A stretch of 44,314 bases of DNA from a virus (Duplodnaviria > Heunggongvirae > Uroviricota > Caudoviricetes): the IMG/VR virus record IMGVR_UViG_2579778807_000004; one strand, given 5' to 3'. This document shows, piece after piece, positions 28,547-36,176 of this stretch (position 1 is its first letter; each line of letters opens with the position of its first letter). Under the pieces are notes generated by a model. That model saw only the letters and a list, made by a program, of their open reading frames with translations. It ran no database searches and was not told the DNA's origin. Position numbers and translations under genes: made by a program.

Positions 28547-29269
28547 CTAAGAAAATCTTGATAAATATTGGTGCGGAGGCACACCAAAATATCCTCTAAA
28601 AACACTTACAAAATATGATGCATTGTCATACCCGCATATTCCCGCCACCTTGCCGACAGTATGGTTACTGTAGATCAATAATCTTTGCGCCATCATCATT
28701 CGTTCTTCAAGAATTAATTTACTAAACGATAATCCTTCGTCTTTTAATTTTCTTTTTAACAAACTCTCGCTCATATATAATCTTGAAGATATATCACAAA
28801 GTCTCCATGACGCTGAGATATCCGAGTGAATAATAGCCTTAACTTTACAACCTAAGCTATTAAGACTTCCGAACAAAAAACTTTGCACTATTTTCTCTGA
28901 AGATAAGACAGCAAGACATGCAAGTGATATTTGATTTCTAACTACATCCACGGTTTTGCTATCACAATTCAAGCATGCAACCAAGTTCTTTAACAATGAA
29001 AAATCTTCACATTCTACTATCAAGTATGACGGATAAAACCTTCTTACAGAAAAAGGTGAGAGTGTGTAGTTTTTAAAGAAATCATTAACTGTTTTCTCCT
29101 CAACATCTACGATCATTAGATGATCTGTATTTGACGAAAAAAGATCTTTTAAATTGTATTCAATGAGGACAGCATTTCCTTTTTTAAACAAAATATCTTC
29201 TTTACCAATTCGGACACCAAACGAGTTCAACACCAAAATGATAGAACATATGTATGGCATATTATCCAC
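28547..29269 (-). CDS. AraC-family transcriptional regulator (AT-rich cargo gene)
   Basis: C-terminal AraC-type HTH (...GKVAGICGYDNASYFVSVFRGYFGVPPHQY); AT-rich codon usage unlike phage core. Confidence 0.8.
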   Translation of the reverse strand: MDNMPYICSIILVLNSFGVRIGKEDILFKKGNAVLIEYNLKDLFSSNTDHLMIVDVEEKTVNDFFKNYTLSPFSVRRFYPSYLIVECEDFSLLKNLVACLNCDSKTVDVVRNQISLACLAVLSSEKIVQSFLFGSLNSLGCKVKAIIHSDISASWRLCDISSRLYMSESLLKRKLKDEGLSFSKLILEERMMMAQRLLIYSNHTVGKVAGICGYDNASYFVSVFRGYFGVPPHQYLSRFS

Positions 29270-29666: not shown

Positions 29667-30626
29667 TTAATTCACCATCAGTCTTAGAGCCAGTTCTTCC
29701 GGATAGGGATCGAAGTAATTCTGTGTAAGCAAGTAATCATTAGGATACTCACCCAGATAATGCTTCAGCAGAGTCAACGGCGCAAGAAGAGGCAATGTGC
29801 CAAAGCGATAGTTAAGTATAACCTCGCTCAACTCTTTACGCTGGCGTGTACTTAAGTAATTACTAAAATACCCCTGTATATGCATCAGCACATTCGTGTG
29901 ATTTTTACGTGATGCTGGTTTTCTGAGAATCGCCATCAGATTATCACGATACACCTCAAAGTATGATTCAAGGTCCGCCCACTCGTGTATTGCAGCCACA
30001 AATGGTCCCATATCTTTATAGCCTGCCTGGCTATGCGCCAACAACTGAAGCTTATAACGACTATGAAAAGCTAATAACTCTCTTCTTGATAATTTCTCCT
30101 TGTAAAGATGATTGAGCTCATGCAAAGCAAAAACTCTTTCAATAAAATTCTCACGAAGCACTGGATCATGTAATCGCCCATCCTCTTCAACCGGTAGCCA
30201 GGAAAACTTTTCCATCAAAGTGCTCGTAAATAGTCCCACTCCATCTTTACGACCTCGATTACCATTTTCATCATAGACACGCACGCGCTCCATGCCACAG
30301 CTGGGAGATTTAGCACAAACCACAAACCCCGATACATCCTTTAATTTGTCCATATAAGAACGACTAAACTCTGTCATTCTCTCTGTCACATCCTCATTCT
30401 GGTCGTGGCTGAAACACATCCGTATATTTCCTTGCTTCGAGCGCACAAGTCGTAGAGCAGGACGCGGAACTGGCAGCCCTATAGCCATTTCCGGACATAC
30501 TGGTCTGAATGTTACCCATTCCACTAATTTGTCCATTAAAAAGTCATCTCTTTTGTGACCACCATCAAAACGAACAGCAGAACCGCCCAAACAACCGCTG
30601 ATCCCAATCACAGGTTTTTTTATCAT
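29667..30626 (-). CDS. DUF523/DUF1722 two-domain protein (YbgA-like; N-terminal domain resembles TudS-type Fe-S proteins)
   Basis: 319 aa; N-terminal Cys-containing motifs (ISGCLGG, CPE, CAKSPSCGME) then YbgA-like C-terminal domain; recalled from memory. Confidence 0.55.
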   Translation of the reverse strand: MIKKPVIGISGCLGGSAVRFDGGHKRDDFLMDKLVEWVTFRPVCPEMAIGLPVPRPALRLVRSKQGNIRMCFSHDQNEDVTERMTEFSRSYMDKLKDVSGFVVCAKSPSCGMERVRVYDENGNRGRKDGVGLFTSTLMEKFSWLPVEEDGRLHDPVLRENFIERVFALHELNHLYKEKLSRRELLAFHSRYKLQLLAHSQAGYKDMGPFVAAIHEWADLESYFEVYRDNLMAILRKPASRKNHTNVLMHIQGYFSNYLSTRQRKELSEVILNYRFGTLPLLAPLTLLKHYLGEYPNDYLLTQNYFDPYPEELALRLMVN

Positions 30627-30818: not shown

Positions 30819-31343
30819 ATGAAGTTATGGCCTGTGTTGACTGGCATTGCACTCTCTTTCACTCTTATAGCATGTAAGGCCCCGACACCACCTAAAGGTG
30901 TGCAGCCGATTACAAATTTTGACGCCAACCGCTACCTCGGAAAATGGTATGAAATAGCTCGCCTCGAGAACTGGTTCGAACGTGGTCTGGAACAAGTCAG
31001 CGCTACTTATGAAAAACGGAACGACGGAGGGATTCGCGTACTTAACCGTGGATACGATCCAACGAAAAACAAATGGAGCGAGAGCGAAGGTAAAGCATAC
31101 TTTACTGGAGATACTAAAACTGCAGCGTTGAAAGTTTCGTTTTTTGGCCCCTTCTATGGTGGCTATAATGTAATCAAGCTGGATGATGAGTATAAGTATG
31201 CTCTTGTCAGTGGTCCGAACAGAGAATACCTATGGATTCTGGCAAGGACCCAAACTATTCCAGATAATGTAAAAGCAGACTATGTGCGTACCGCTCAAAA
31301 GTTGGGATTCAATGTCAATGAACTATTATGGGTTAAACAATAA
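30819..31343 (+). CDS. Outer-membrane lipocalin (Blc-like)
   Basis: Lipoprotein signal (LIACKAP) and strong similarity to remembered E. coli Blc (NFDA.RYLGKWYEIAR...FERGLE...KVSFFGPFYGGYNVI.LD.EY..ALV.GP.R.YLWIL.RT). Confidence 0.88.
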   Translation: MKLWPVLTGIALSFTLIACKAPTPPKGVQPITNFDANRYLGKWYEIARLENWFERGLEQVSATYEKRNDGGIRVLNRGYDPTKNKWSESEGKAYFTGDTKTAALKVSFFGPFYGGYNVIKLDDEYKYALVSGPNREYLWILARTQTIPDNVKADYVRTAQKLGFNVNELLWVKQ

Positions 31344-31498: not shown

Positions 31499-31876
31499 TT
31501 ATTTCGAACAATCAGCATCCATCTCCAATCGGAGATCCAACACCATCAGCATGCCCTCCACTACGCCCTCAGCTTTCTGGAGCATCCTGCCAACCCAACA
31601 ATCAGATCGCCCATGCTTACGTGCAAGCGCCATAAAAGTCATGCCGCCGACATAATAGTCCACCAATAAATCATGTAAATCGCTGTTGTTTTTTTTCAGG
31701 CGAGCCATACATTCACAAATGATCATCGCGTCATCGTCACAGCATTGCGGACGAGATCTTACTTTTGAAGGAATTAATCCCTTAAAACCGGCGGCAATGG
31801 ACGACCAGGTCACATCTTCATGATTATTAGCCGCCCATGCCCCCCAACGCTCAAGAACCATCTGAATATCACGCAT
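31499..31876 (-). CDS. Late-gene antiterminator Q (QuuD/QuuQ-type)
   Basis: [39 protein letters not shown]... matches remembered QuuD-type antiterminators; track ORF starts with TTG 5 codons upstream. Confidence 0.8.
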
Positions 31877-31893
31877 CAACTTACTCCACAAAA

Positions 31894-33769: not shown

Positions 33770-33925
33770 TTACTCCTCAGGTTCGTAAGCTGTGAAGACA
33801 GCGACCTCCGTCTGGCCGGTTCGAATTCGTACCTCGCAAAGGTCTTTCCTCGTTACCAGTGCCGTCACTATGACGGTTAAACAGATGACGATCAGGGCGA
33901 TTAACATCGCCTTTTGCTGCTTCAT
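33770..33925 (-). CDS. hokD: Hok/Gef-family membrane toxin
   Basis: MKQQKAMLIALIVICLTVIVTALVTRKDLCEVRIRTGQTEVAVFTAYEPEE matches remembered HokD/RelF; 51 aa. Confidence 0.85.
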   Translation of the reverse strand: MKQQKAMLIALIVICLTVIVTALVTRKDLCEVRIRTGQTEVAVFTAYEPEE

Positions 33926-34155
33926 AGCCTGCTTCTCCTTGCCTTTCGGCACGTAAGAGGCTAACCTACATGTGTCTAGCATGAAATTGGCCTCAGATTA
34001 ATGTTAAGCGTCTTGCAGGACGCGTAATGTTAACTGGGGCTTTTCTCTATCTGCCTTTGGTGTTCATGCCTGAGACAGATAGCCTCAAGCACCCACGGAA
34101 ACTTTACTAAAGGAGTTATAGCTTTTCCAGTAGTCTCAACATATTCACATTGCTA

Positions 34156-35712
34156 TTACCTATCAAACAACGGATGTATTACAAAATCTCTCTTCATATC
34201 AGTAATATCCAAATTAGGTTTATCAAAAGATGAATATATAATTAAAGATGCTGTTTTCCTTATGCCAACCACGCCTACGACGAACCAGACTTTAAGTAAC
34301 TCCTCAAAATTCATCAATATTTTTGTATGTTGATCATCCTCTTTAACTACAGTCAATCTATCAAGTAAATGCTGCGATATATCATCTTTTACTGCTTGTC
34401 CTATGTTTGAGACTGTAAAATCAGAAAATGAAATCAAGGAAAGCACATCCAAATATTCTTCGATAAACGGATATATGCTTTTCCATTCTGTAACCAAAGC
34501 TCTCTTTCTGGACGAATAAAATTTCTCTTCGGCAATTAACACAATATTTTCATTCATGTTAACCATACCATCGCACTCAGAAAGACATATATTTACGAAA
34601 TTAATTGCATCTCTAGGCCTAAGCATTGTTCTGTCAAGGATATAATCATCTGCTCCAATACCTTCAACTGTAAAATTAAAAATATCCTTCATTAATACAG
34701 ACTTATTTGATTGATATCTATTTTTAACCAAATGGTTAATTCTAGCATCAATAATCTCTCTTATTTCCGTTTTATTCCATGATATGGAATATATTAAAGA
34801 TTGATCTTTCTCATCCTGCCTTAAACTACTTTTATAAATTCCCATTAAAATATCTGTTCTTATTGATATCAGAACCTTAACCGACTTTATATCTAATAAT
34901 TCTCGAAAGGCCTCAAGAAGAGCATTAATAAAGTCATATCTGATGGCGCTCGTGCTTAACCAAGATTTATCTAAATCATCGATACTGATTACTATTCTAA
35001 CCTGGTTTGAGTCAGCGAACTCCTCTTTAAGTATTTTAATAAGTTCTTTTTGTTTAAAAAGAAGTTCACGACTCACATAACTTGAAGTTTCTGATTGTAT
35101 TTTGGCTGTATCAGAATTAGATATTTTACCACCCACACCAACAGCGGAATTTCCGAGTTTGAATGACAAATCACTTTCAAGCTTGTTACTTATTTCAATG
35201 AGCGCTTTATCATTGAAGAAATTTTCTTTAAATTGTTCAATATAATCATTCGCAACTTCTGGTTTATACGGTTTCTTCTTACCACCAATAAGATCTTTAA
35301 TTTCCTCAAAAAAGCTTTGATAGGAAGAACGATAAACGGCTGGTATAACTTTCATAAGTAATACATGCAGCCATAACGATTTATAAAACCCACGTAAATC
35401 TATCCCTTTCGAGATCAAATCAGATATAAACACATTGTTATTAATATGTTCAAATATCGTATTTTCTGCCTCTATTGTGTCATGCAGCTTAATATTTCCT
35501 TTGTCTAATATTTTTTTAAGCAACGCAGACTTACCGCTTCCTGTTCTTCCAACAATAATTCTTCTTGTAAAATCAGGATTCTTCTCAGTAGAGTCAAAAT
35601 TCACAATACCTTTAAAAACATTGGACTCATAAAAACAAGCATCAAGATAAGAATCAGTTTCCGCCTCTAATTTTCCAATCTCATCATTATTTCTGAATTT
35701 ATAGGCATTCAT
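34156..35712 (-). CDS. P-loop NTPase of unknown family in an AT-rich island; candidate standalone anti-phage defence / abortive-infection protein
   Basis: Walker A IVGRTGSGKSALLKKI near N-terminus; Walker B-like VRIVISIDDLDKSW ~185 aa later; Arg-containing motif RTMLRPRD; strikingly AT-rich versus flanking phage genes; occupies the relBE-equivalent hotspot. Confidence 0.7.
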   Translation of the reverse strand: MNAYKFRNNDEIGKLEAETDSYLDACFYESNVFKGIVNFDSTEKNPDFTRRIIVGRTGSGKSALLKKILDKGNIKLHDTIEAENTIFEHINNNVFISDLISKGIDLRGFYKSLWLHVLLMKVIPAVYRSSYQSFFEEIKDLIGGKKKPYKPEVANDYIEQFKENFFNDKALIEISNKLESDLSFKLGNSAVGVGGKISNSDTAKIQSETSSYVSRELLFKQKELIKILKEEFADSNQVRIVISIDDLDKSWLSTSAIRYDFINALLEAFRELLDIKSVKVLISIRTDILMGIYKSSLRQDEKDQSLIYSISWNKTEIREIIDARINHLVKNRYQSNKSVLMKDIFNFTVEGIGADDYILDRTMLRPRDAINFVNICLSECDGMVNMNENIVLIAEEKFYSSRKRALVTEWKSIYPFIEEYLDVLSLISFSDFTVSNIGQAVKDDISQHLLDRLTVVKEDDQHTKILMNFEELLKVWFVVGVVGIRKTASLIIYSSFDKPNLDITDMKRDFVIHPLFDR

Positions 35713-35961
35713 TGAACAAAAGCTCCATGCTATCTGTAGTTTGGTTTTTAATTATAAAAACATTTTATTAACAATTCCACTAAATTGAAACATAATGACA
35801 ACATGAAACAAAACGTTAGAGGTCAGTTGGCATCAATTGCTCTACCTAAGCTCTGTTACCGACTCCCCGACTACTCCCCAAAATTTTTTGTCTCTGGTAT
35901 CCGTTGCTGTTCCGGCGACATTCCTGCGCCGCAGCCTGTTTCGACGCTGTTGACCTTTCGG

Positions 35962-36174
35962 TTACCGCTTTTGCAATGCAGATTTTTCCTGCCAGTTCGG
36001 TACCAGCCGATATTTTTTCCCCTCCCGCACAAGCTGCCCGTACCGCTGTATGTTCTGGAGCAGGTTTTGAATTTTCTTGTTGGTCACACCAAGAGCATCA
36101 GCCAGCTCCCGGAACGTGGCTTCCCCGTTCTCCAGCAAATGCTGGATTGCGGCCTGTTGATTACTGCTGTGCAT
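35962..36174 (-). CDS. Small winged-helix DNA-binding protein (70 aa), possibly a truncated replication-gene remnant or regulator
   Basis: HTH-like segment ATFRELADALGVTNKKIQNLLQNI; translationally adjacent to the O-like gene; phage-like GC content. Confidence 0.45.
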   Translation of the reverse strand: MHSSNQQAAIQHLLENGEATFRELADALGVTNKKIQNLLQNIQRYGQLVREGKKYRLVPNWQEKSALQKR

Positions 36175-36176
36175 AC

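Follow-up and report, generated by a model that had tools for sequence, protein, structure and literature searches.

Among the P-loop ATPases that the National Center for Biotechnology Information (NCBI) groups as the Sll1717 family, the only tested member is DS-41, which belongs to the 42 systems that DeWeirdt, Mahoney, and Laub validated (Science 2026; PMC13092281). DS-41 is a single gene of 502 amino acids (construct "AAA2," WP_033812887.1), and its log plating drops in the screen were 5.3 for T4, 5.0 for Bas1, 4.7 for Candy, 3.6 for Bas63, 2.7 for Bas3, 2.5 for Bas69, 2.3 for Bas19, and 1.4 for Bas25 (PMC13092281). Here, we focused on another ATPase gene, encoded in IMG/VR virus record IMGVR_UViG_2579778807_000004, a stretch of 44,314 nucleotides (referred to as the window) that constitutes a complete Qin-type lambdoid prophage. 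Reading the letters of this DNA, the original prediction had singled out the gene as a candidate undescribed defense protein. Defense is also the reading that we find best supported, but the protein is not undescribed. Judging from sequence comparisons, the ATPase is probably an anti-phage determinant, and the explanation that we favor as a whole, almost as firmly, is that it is mobile single-gene anti-phage (superinfection-exclusion) cargo, with an ATP switch as its proposed mode of action.

34156 to 35712, minus strand: Sll1717-family P-loop ATPase gene, 518 amino acids (open reading frame [ORF], NF047389, RefSeq annotation, AlphaFold2 model, and purifying selection)

The NCBIfam model NF047389 ("P-loop ATPase, Sll1717 family") matches the protein with 180.5 bits against a cutoff of 75 (E value of 6e-53), and it does so end to end, with residues 12 to 516 on profile positions 1 to 450 of 454. 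RefSeq gives the same name to WP_001741757.1, to which the protein is identical. By these assignments, the ATPase is already named and placed in a family rather than being an undescribed orphan, although the original prediction could not assign it to a named family from sequence alone. A literature search under "Sll1717" or WP_001741757 found no paper. The top Pfam match is KAP_NTPase (PF07693; 28 bits versus a cutoff of 20, E value of 1.6e-6), which is partial (residues 58 to 300 on profile positions 30 to 206 of 293), and AAA_22 matches below its threshold, as do the STAND models nSTAND1 (22 versus 27.1 bits) and NACHT (13.7 versus 26.7 bits). In PHROGs, the ATPase belongs to an unannotated family, and the best hit of a PDB sequence search was PilT at an E value of 0.2, which is uninformative. 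The FtsK/HerA/VirB4 flavor formerly ascribed to the P-loop was rejected, given that DUF87/HerA aligns only over residues 53 to 71 (E value of 0.12) and that the best folds are all AAA+. An exhaustive profile search returned 1,799 clusters (50% identity) at an E value of ≤1e-3, 468 of them at ≤1e-30. The best 150 of the 1,799 are mostly 520 to 580 amino acids long with full-length matches, and the family architecture appears to be fixed and stand-alone, without fused domains. The family spans at least Gammaproteobacteria, Kiritimatiellota, an Acidobacteria-type lineage (Vicinamibacterales), and Actinomycetes. In public records, many homologs are called "DNA repair protein" by NCBI, and single JGI records read "gluconate kinase" or "ABC-type transport ... 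ATPase"; none of these labels is supported by the domain or fold results obtained here.

DS-41 passes both the "DS41_1 anti-phage protein" equivalog NF053860 (414 bits) and NF047389 (97.6 bits), and members of its clade carry the name "Sll1717 family" at NCBI. The ATPase fails the equivalog, with 39.1 bits versus a cutoff of 370 (true DS-41 members score 371 to 414 bits). On NF047389, in contrast, DS-41 is the outlier and the ATPase lies nearer the center of the model. The two are alike in being single genes of about 500 amino acids that pass the Sll1717 model, with a collinear ATPase core and no recognized effector domain. Alignment of the two clades with hhalign gave a probability of 90.8% and an E value of 1.2e-6 over 318 columns, in a register that superimposes Walker A, Walker B (ISIDDLDKSW versus VLVDKLDET), ISWN..E.R..D.R, and PR[DE]. 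The ATPase and DS-41 thus represent two deep branches of one family, in which anti-phage protection has been measured for DS-41.

A second line of evidence comes from the defense predictions of the same study, whose Table S10 clusters proteins from 3,000 Escherichia coli genomes at 30% identity and 80% reciprocal coverage (PMC13092281). In this table, the cluster with the identifier WP_001741757.1 is labeled "predicted novel defense gene," and its top scorer, WP_000026497.1, has a DefensePredictor mean log-odds of 14.7; neither protein was found in the searched tables of tested constructs (PMC13092281). WP_000026497.1 (557 amino acids) resembles the ATPase in being a solo gene borne on mobile genetic elements, and it scores 212.8 bits on NF047389. 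It differs in being 30% identical and about 40 residues longer, and in residing on IncF-type plasmids among insertion sequence (IS) elements rather than in a prophage. We found it, in E. coli and Klebsiella, on 91 PLSDB plasmids, 58 of which are conjugative.

To describe the protein itself, we aligned 28 sequences of 13 to 56% identity, including the DS-41 clade, and built an AlphaFold2 model from 41 homologs (pLDDT of 84, pTM of 0.81). The resulting features are as follows.

35632 to 35679, minus strand: N-terminal motif IGxLxAExDxxLxxCF (residues 12 to 27); A17 is invariant across the superfamily, including the DS-41 clade
35527 to 35550, minus strand: Walker A/P-loop GRTGSGKS (residues 55 to 62); G55, G58, G60, K61, and A63 are invariant
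35017 to 35394, minus strand: all-helical insertion of about 125 amino acids between strand 2 and Walker B (residues 107 to 232), from DSSP of the model
34969 to 34995, minus strand: Walker B IVISIDDLD (residues 240 to 248); D245 and D248 are invariant in the superfamily and D246 in the clade
34609 to 34632, minus strand: lid motif RTMLRPRD (residues 361 to 368); P366-R367 is invariant, at the N terminus of lid helix 366 to 378
34303 to 34434, minus strand: hypervariable patch of the C-terminal region (residues 427 to 470), from comparison of homolog identities
34159 to 34404, minus strand: C-terminal winged-helix-like domain (residues 437 to 518), mildly acidic and ending in an invariant IHPLF

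The three motifs that had been read from the sequence (GRTGSGKS, a Walker B 185 residues farther on, and RTMLRPRD) are therefore all present and conserved. Invariant positions of the alignment are A17, G55, G58, G60, K61, A63, W114, D245, D248, P366, and R367, and the motifs that are invariant or nearly so family-wide comprise the N-terminal A-E, GxxGxGK[ST]A, W114, hhhhDxLD, W312/R324, and the lid P-R[DE]. R367 is a candidate sensor-2 arginine and R298 a candidate arginine finger. The model combines an AAA+ core with the 125-residue helical insertion, a helical lid that opens with the Pro-Arg pair, and a C-terminal helical/winged region. Its fold is thus predicted to be AAA+, nearest to BrxC, Cdc6/ORC, and STAND rather than to FtsK/HerA; the best structural neighbors are BrxC, Cdc6/ORC, TnsC, MuB, and RFC. 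Pfam and fold searches detected neither a nuclease, protease, NADase, or other effector fold nor sensor repeats or a separate effector domain, in agreement with the earlier remark that no nuclease or effector domain is recognizable.

Comparison of homologs revealed a hypervariable patch, which is a new detail of this analysis. Over residues 427 to 470, the identity of six homologs to the window protein amounts to 61, 52, 34, 30, 30, and 32%, whereas in the same six it is 81 to 99% over the core segment 233 to 312 and 71 to 88% over the last 48 residues. The patch falls in the C-terminal region, the part that also differs from DS-41; a second soft spot at about residues 181 to 200 lies in a low-confidence loop of the helical insertion. 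The winged-helix region has a family mean charge of -2.8, and the helical insertion (+3.3) is the sole net-basic region, so that charge lends no support to a DNA-binding winged helix. From these sequence features, the patch is a candidate target-recognition surface, and hypervariability and charge together fit an arms-race surface for protein recognition better than they fit a DNA-binding winged helix.

The genetic neighborhoods of the homologs, given here with their identity to the ATPase, are mostly those of mobile elements.

Serratia marcescens, 70%: in P2-like prophages, repeatedly found with gpA on one side and the portal gene on the other
Yersinia, 72%: immediately outside a prophage integrase
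A second E. coli strain, 70%: immediately outside a prophage integrase
Enterobacter, 89%: IncFII conjugative plasmid, adjoining YafO and TacAT
Yersinia, 86%: ParAB plasmid, with anti-restriction and Gp49/HI1420 toxin-antitoxin genes nearby
Citrobacter/Klebsiella, 76%: within an integrative and conjugative element (ICE)
Dickeya, 75%: near a Fic gene, to which a PADLOC SoFic match (1e-45) in the neighbor set is attributed
Acinetobacter, 50%: before a prophage terminase/portal gene
Actinomycete metagenome-assembled genome, 26%: immediately preceded by genes for a Schlafen-type helicase, an HNH endonuclease, and a Type IV restriction enzyme (1,190 bits)

The gpA-gpQ interval of P2, which corresponds to the Serratia position, is a defense hotspot that holds old and tin in P2 itself (Rousset et al. 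2022). In the Actinomycetes metagenome-assembled genome (JAEZWF010000016.1, locus L008, 3844-9868), we observed a defense island directly upstream of the Sll1717-family gene, in which the helicase is PDC-S41/AbiO/Nhi-like and the restriction enzyme is of the PLD-helicase-DUF3427 type. Relatives of the ATPase also occur on 25 IMG/VR viral contigs. The homolog loci came from a scan of a genome collection (at least 5 loci), from look-ups of the exact proteins, and from IMG/VR. Across 39 loci with 220 neighboring ORFs, no neighbor family appeared in more than 7 loci, and those that recurred did so at varying positions; the nearest neighbors were mostly integrases, portals, terminases, repressors, and partition genes. 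Because no neighbor family is conserved across these loci, the gene moves alone, landing in accessory slots of mobile elements. Its GC content is 30 to 34% in every host examined.

We read the ATPase as a defense protein because it shares its family with the validated DS-41, because a homolog occupies the old/tin hotspot of P2, and because of the hypervariable patch and the DefensePredictor cluster. Several caveats attach to this reading. PADLOC v2, run on the ATPase protein, gave only P-loop-level matches to mad8 and mad3 (E value of about 0.01) and no significant system membership. Identity to the DS-41 clade is 13 to 16%, a remote relationship, and the C-terminal 120 residues are unaligned, as hhalign ends at residue 400 of the ATPase and 404 of DS-41. 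The log-odds of 14.7 belongs to the 30%-identical relative in its plasmid context and not to the ATPase itself, and only 42 of the 94 high-scoring units of that study were validated (PMC13092281). Finally, a tblastn search of 50,697 deposited phage genomes returned no relative of the ATPase.

As to how such a protein might act, we drew on the analogy with STAND proteins and with KAP defense proteins (PMC13552941). The hypervariable surface at residues 427 to 470 would recognize a component made by the phage, for which a protein or nucleoprotein is a likelier candidate than naked DNA. Self-assembly would then be driven by ATP bound at the Walker A/B site (K61, D245/D248), with R367 serving as sensor-2 and R298 possibly as arginine finger. 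Since the protein has neither a separate effector domain nor a partner gene, the effector role would fall to the assembled ATPase, which would either trap or remodel its phage target or consume ATP, and so halt phage propagation. By this analogy, a protein-sensing switch is plausible, if still somewhat short of an even bet, and any specific effector step that one might name is unlikely to be the right one.

The lid motif PR[DE] is a hallmark of KAP NTPases. The ATPase shares it with these proteins (PF07693, including PifA of F, EF_KAP, Tmn, and QatA), together with the Pfam match and an insertion that separates Walker A from Walker B. Transmembrane helices are present in EF_KAP and typical KAP proteins, and single-protein KAP defenses require Walker B (PMC13552941). 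The ATPase differs in lacking a transmembrane helix: the most hydrophobic 19-residue Kyte-Doolittle window reaches 1.58 and falls within a predicted beta region. A KAP-type transmembrane insert, typical of these proteins though not universal, was sought and not found, the insertion being a soluble helical bundle in the model and soluble by hydropathy. Further differences are that a small winged-helix domain, rather than a 300-amino-acid unknown module, makes up the C-terminal region and that the PADLOC models of Tmn and QatA do not match. Compared with STAND proteins (Avs/AVAST and bacterial NLR-like), the ATPase is about one-third to one-half the size, lacks TPR, LRR, or WD40 sensor repeats as well as an N-terminal effector, and stays under every STAND Pfam cutoff. 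BrxC/PglY of BREX, RdrA of RADAR, and ORC/Cdc6 show no sequence-level match, with TM-scores of ≤0.38. No BREX or RADAR partner genes lie near the ATPase, nor was there any PADLOC match below an E value of 0.01, and, in contrast to ORC/Cdc6 initiators, homologs outside the window have no replication context.

Within defense, the main mechanistic rival to a protein-sensing switch is ATP-dependent polymerization on invading or replicating phage DNA, in the manner of ORC/Cdc6, TnsC, or MuB. The best structural neighbors of the model point in this direction, as does the C-terminal winged helix, which Cdc6 also has. The net-basic helical insertion would fit as well, since it sits at a position that we take to be the one where initiator-type AAA+ proteins carry their DNA-contacting insert. 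Given that the hypervariable, mildly acidic C-terminal region fits protein recognition better, we consider polymerization on DNA unlikely, though worth keeping in mind.

Outside anti-phage defense, the ATPase could serve conflict between mobile elements or their maintenance, by excluding plasmids or ICEs, stabilizing its host element, or acting against satellites. This would explain why the family is carried on plasmids, ICEs, and prophages alike, with the closest homologs on an IncFII conjugative plasmid, a ParAB plasmid, and an ICE beside toxin-antitoxin and partition genes. It would equally suit the predominance of conjugative plasmids (58 of 91) among carriers of the 30%-identical relative and the fact that the ATPase adjoins hok/sok in the window. 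However, defense systems are commonly carried on plasmids and ICEs too, so that distribution does not discriminate between the two roles. Moreover, DS-41 protects against lytic phages, and both the homolog in the P2 gpA-gpQ hotspot and the actinomycete relative beside restriction genes point to phage as the target. We therefore regard a role in conflict between mobile elements as improbable.

Less probable still is that the gene encodes a cellular-type ATPase with another role, such as the "DNA repair protein" of several NCBI records, or that it is a functionless passenger. The absence of an effector domain and the rarity of the gene (10 of 5,426 complete E. coli genomes) would agree with this view, but the repair name finds no domain or fold match behind it, and the patchy distribution bound to mobile elements and the persistently low GC content are unlike those of a housekeeping gene. 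A passenger is further contradicted by strong purifying selection and by full-length conservation in about 1,800 clusters (50% identity). The ORF has the predicted coordinates exactly and is intact, with 518 codons and an ATG start. We compared the gene with 7 homologs from other genera and expressed selection as nonsynonymous and synonymous differences per site (pN and pS), since saturated synonymous sites preclude a dN/dS ratio. The value of pN was 0.08 to 0.19, with pS at about 0.8 (saturated). Because of this low pN against saturated pS, and because a stop-free run of this length has a chance probability of only ∼9e-19 at 31.5% GC, the ORF is a real gene under purifying selection.

The striking AT richness noted in the original prediction is borne out. 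The GC content of the gene is 31.5% versus 49% in the surrounding Qin-type prophage. Along the gene, the profile runs at 0.30 to 0.33 and in the flanks at 0.45 to 0.55, and GC content at third codon positions (GC3) is 0.26 versus 0.44 to 0.63 in neighboring genes. The most AT-rich kilobase of the window is the ATPase gene. It lies, as proposed, at a position equivalent to that of relBE. In RefSeq (identical DNA), the order is ydfU, a small ORF, rem, hokD, the ATPase gene, a 70-amino-acid helix-turn-helix (HTH) gene, an O-like replication gene, ydaT, dicC, and dicA, while the hokD-to-dicC interval of K-12 Qin holds relE-relB-ydfV-flxA-ydfW-ydfX. In megablast searches, similarity to thousands of other prophages ends at about position 34127, immediately upstream of the sok RNA (33920-34094; Rfam, 118 bits), and from about 36175, where the O-like gene ends, other Qin/Rac-type prophages are similar again; we therefore delimit a variable cassette between these points.

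34128 to 36175 (approximate), no strand: variable cassette of the prophage slot, from megablast break points and alternative slot contents
35962 to 36174, minus strand: 70-amino-acid winged-HTH gene, TrmB-like (Pfam TrmB, 26 bits)

The O-like gene occurs without the ATPase gene in ∼2,780 genomes. Alternative contents of the slot are DUF977 with a methyltransferase remnant and QueH, or a DnaC-type ATPase with nin-type small genes. In E. coli C41 (NZ_CP127252.1, locus L028, 1365-4827), the slot of a Rac-type prophage holds the validated defense pair IetA/IetS (PADLOC, 437 and 887 bits), with the DnaC-like loader ydaV on one side and a hok gene on the other, and is thus equivalent to the slot in the window. 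IetAS and relBE share with the ATPase the position between replication genes and hok/sok in Qin/Rac-type prophages; they are unrelated two-gene systems, so that the comparison concerns the slot and not the mechanism. All of this supports the proposal that the ATPase gene is horizontally acquired cargo in a hotspot, more precisely single-gene cargo in a variable slot. That homologs stand solo, with no conserved neighbor in the 39 loci, agrees with it.

Lying after the O-like gene, the ATPase might instead be a prophage replication protein, either a helicase loader or an ORC/Cdc6-like initiator accessory, but this is very improbable, with a loader role essentially excluded on the sequence comparisons: the DnaC-type loaders of related prophages resemble it in the P-loop only (BLASTP E value of 0.047, hhalign probability of 0.4%); a 249-bp gap, the intervening HTH gene, and an AT-rich leader of its own separate it from the replication operon; its GC3 of 0.26 compares with 0.50 for the O-like gene, which so often occurs without it; its homologs occur in elements for which no such loader is needed and reside in gpA-replicating P2-type prophages, next to integrases, on plasmids that bring their own replicons, and in a defense island of a chromosome; and none turned up in the 50,697 phage genomes. 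Helicase-loader homology had been named in advance as the finding that would speak against defense; upon examination, there was none beyond the P-loop.

The 70-amino-acid HTH gene is found only in the 10 ATPase-carrying genomes, plus a 76%-identical degraded copy before IetAS in C41. A role in regulating or partnering the ATPase was rejected, given that the HTH gene adjoins no homolog in other elements and that its degraded copy precedes a different system. Because of this copy, it looks like a flank of the cargo hotspot rather than an ATPase partner. Upstream of the ATPase gene itself, we noted the following.

35713 to 35840, minus strand: AT-rich leader of the ATPase gene, read directly from the sequence
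35751 to 35756, minus strand: perfect -10 element TATAAT, accompanied by GGAG at 35723 to 35726, the ATG at 35710 to 35712, and a weak -35 element, all identified by eye

A consensus promoter scan upstream of the gene gave no minus-strand promoter at the scan threshold. From the leader signals, we infer that the ATPase is expressed from its own AT-rich leader. In the stretch examined downstream (33920-34155), we observed no terminator-like site between its stop codon (34156) and the hok/sok locus, and ATPase transcription could read into the hok mRNA leader.

Other parts of the window also carry accessory genes. A second AT-rich gene (28547-29269, minus strand; GC content of ∼0.30 to 0.35) encodes a 240-amino-acid AraC-family regulator that is nearest to YdeO/GadX/HilD and under every equivalog cutoff (best, 112 versus 348 bits); it resembles a prophage moron with the potential to rewire host regulation. 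A YbgA-family gene (29667-30626, minus strand) and a lipocalin-family gene (30819-31343, plus strand), located between the Q antiterminator and the lysis cassette, appear to be metabolic-looking cargo in a second accessory slot. The Q antiterminator (31499-31891) is intact in the window, with 130 amino acids, and is split by an IS3 element in the otherwise identical prophage of strain 300081 (locus L001, 8239-9877).

The ATPase itself would not surprise a specialist, as a single-gene ATPase of the Sll1717 family with DS-41 as a validated example and a published prediction listing. If confirmed, it would give this large family of solo ATPases a second experimental anchor, and a very divergent one. 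For annotation, the "DNA repair protein" labels on its homologs are shown to be unfounded. For the biology of Qin/Rac-type prophages, the interval from the replication genes to hok is documented as a defense hotspot (relBE, IetAS, and the ATPase), which is useful for mining. Without an effector or a partner, the ATPase offers a compact model for how an AAA+/STAND-type module might stop phage alone. Through the hypervariable patch, specificity can be approached directly, and the question of effector-less action becomes more tractable. One may go further and speculate, doubtful as this is, that the Sll1717 family, with the ATPase clade at its center, represents a minimal effector-less immune switch. 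In such a switch, a nucleotide-binding domain, a lid, and a winged helix would suffice, the 44-residue patch would sense a phage protein, and ATP-driven assembly of the protein would end the infection by sequestering or remodeling the target or by draining ATP. If true, this would be a defense mechanism without a nuclease, NADase, pore, or protease, possibly near an ancestral core that was elaborated into Avs/NLR-type receptors.

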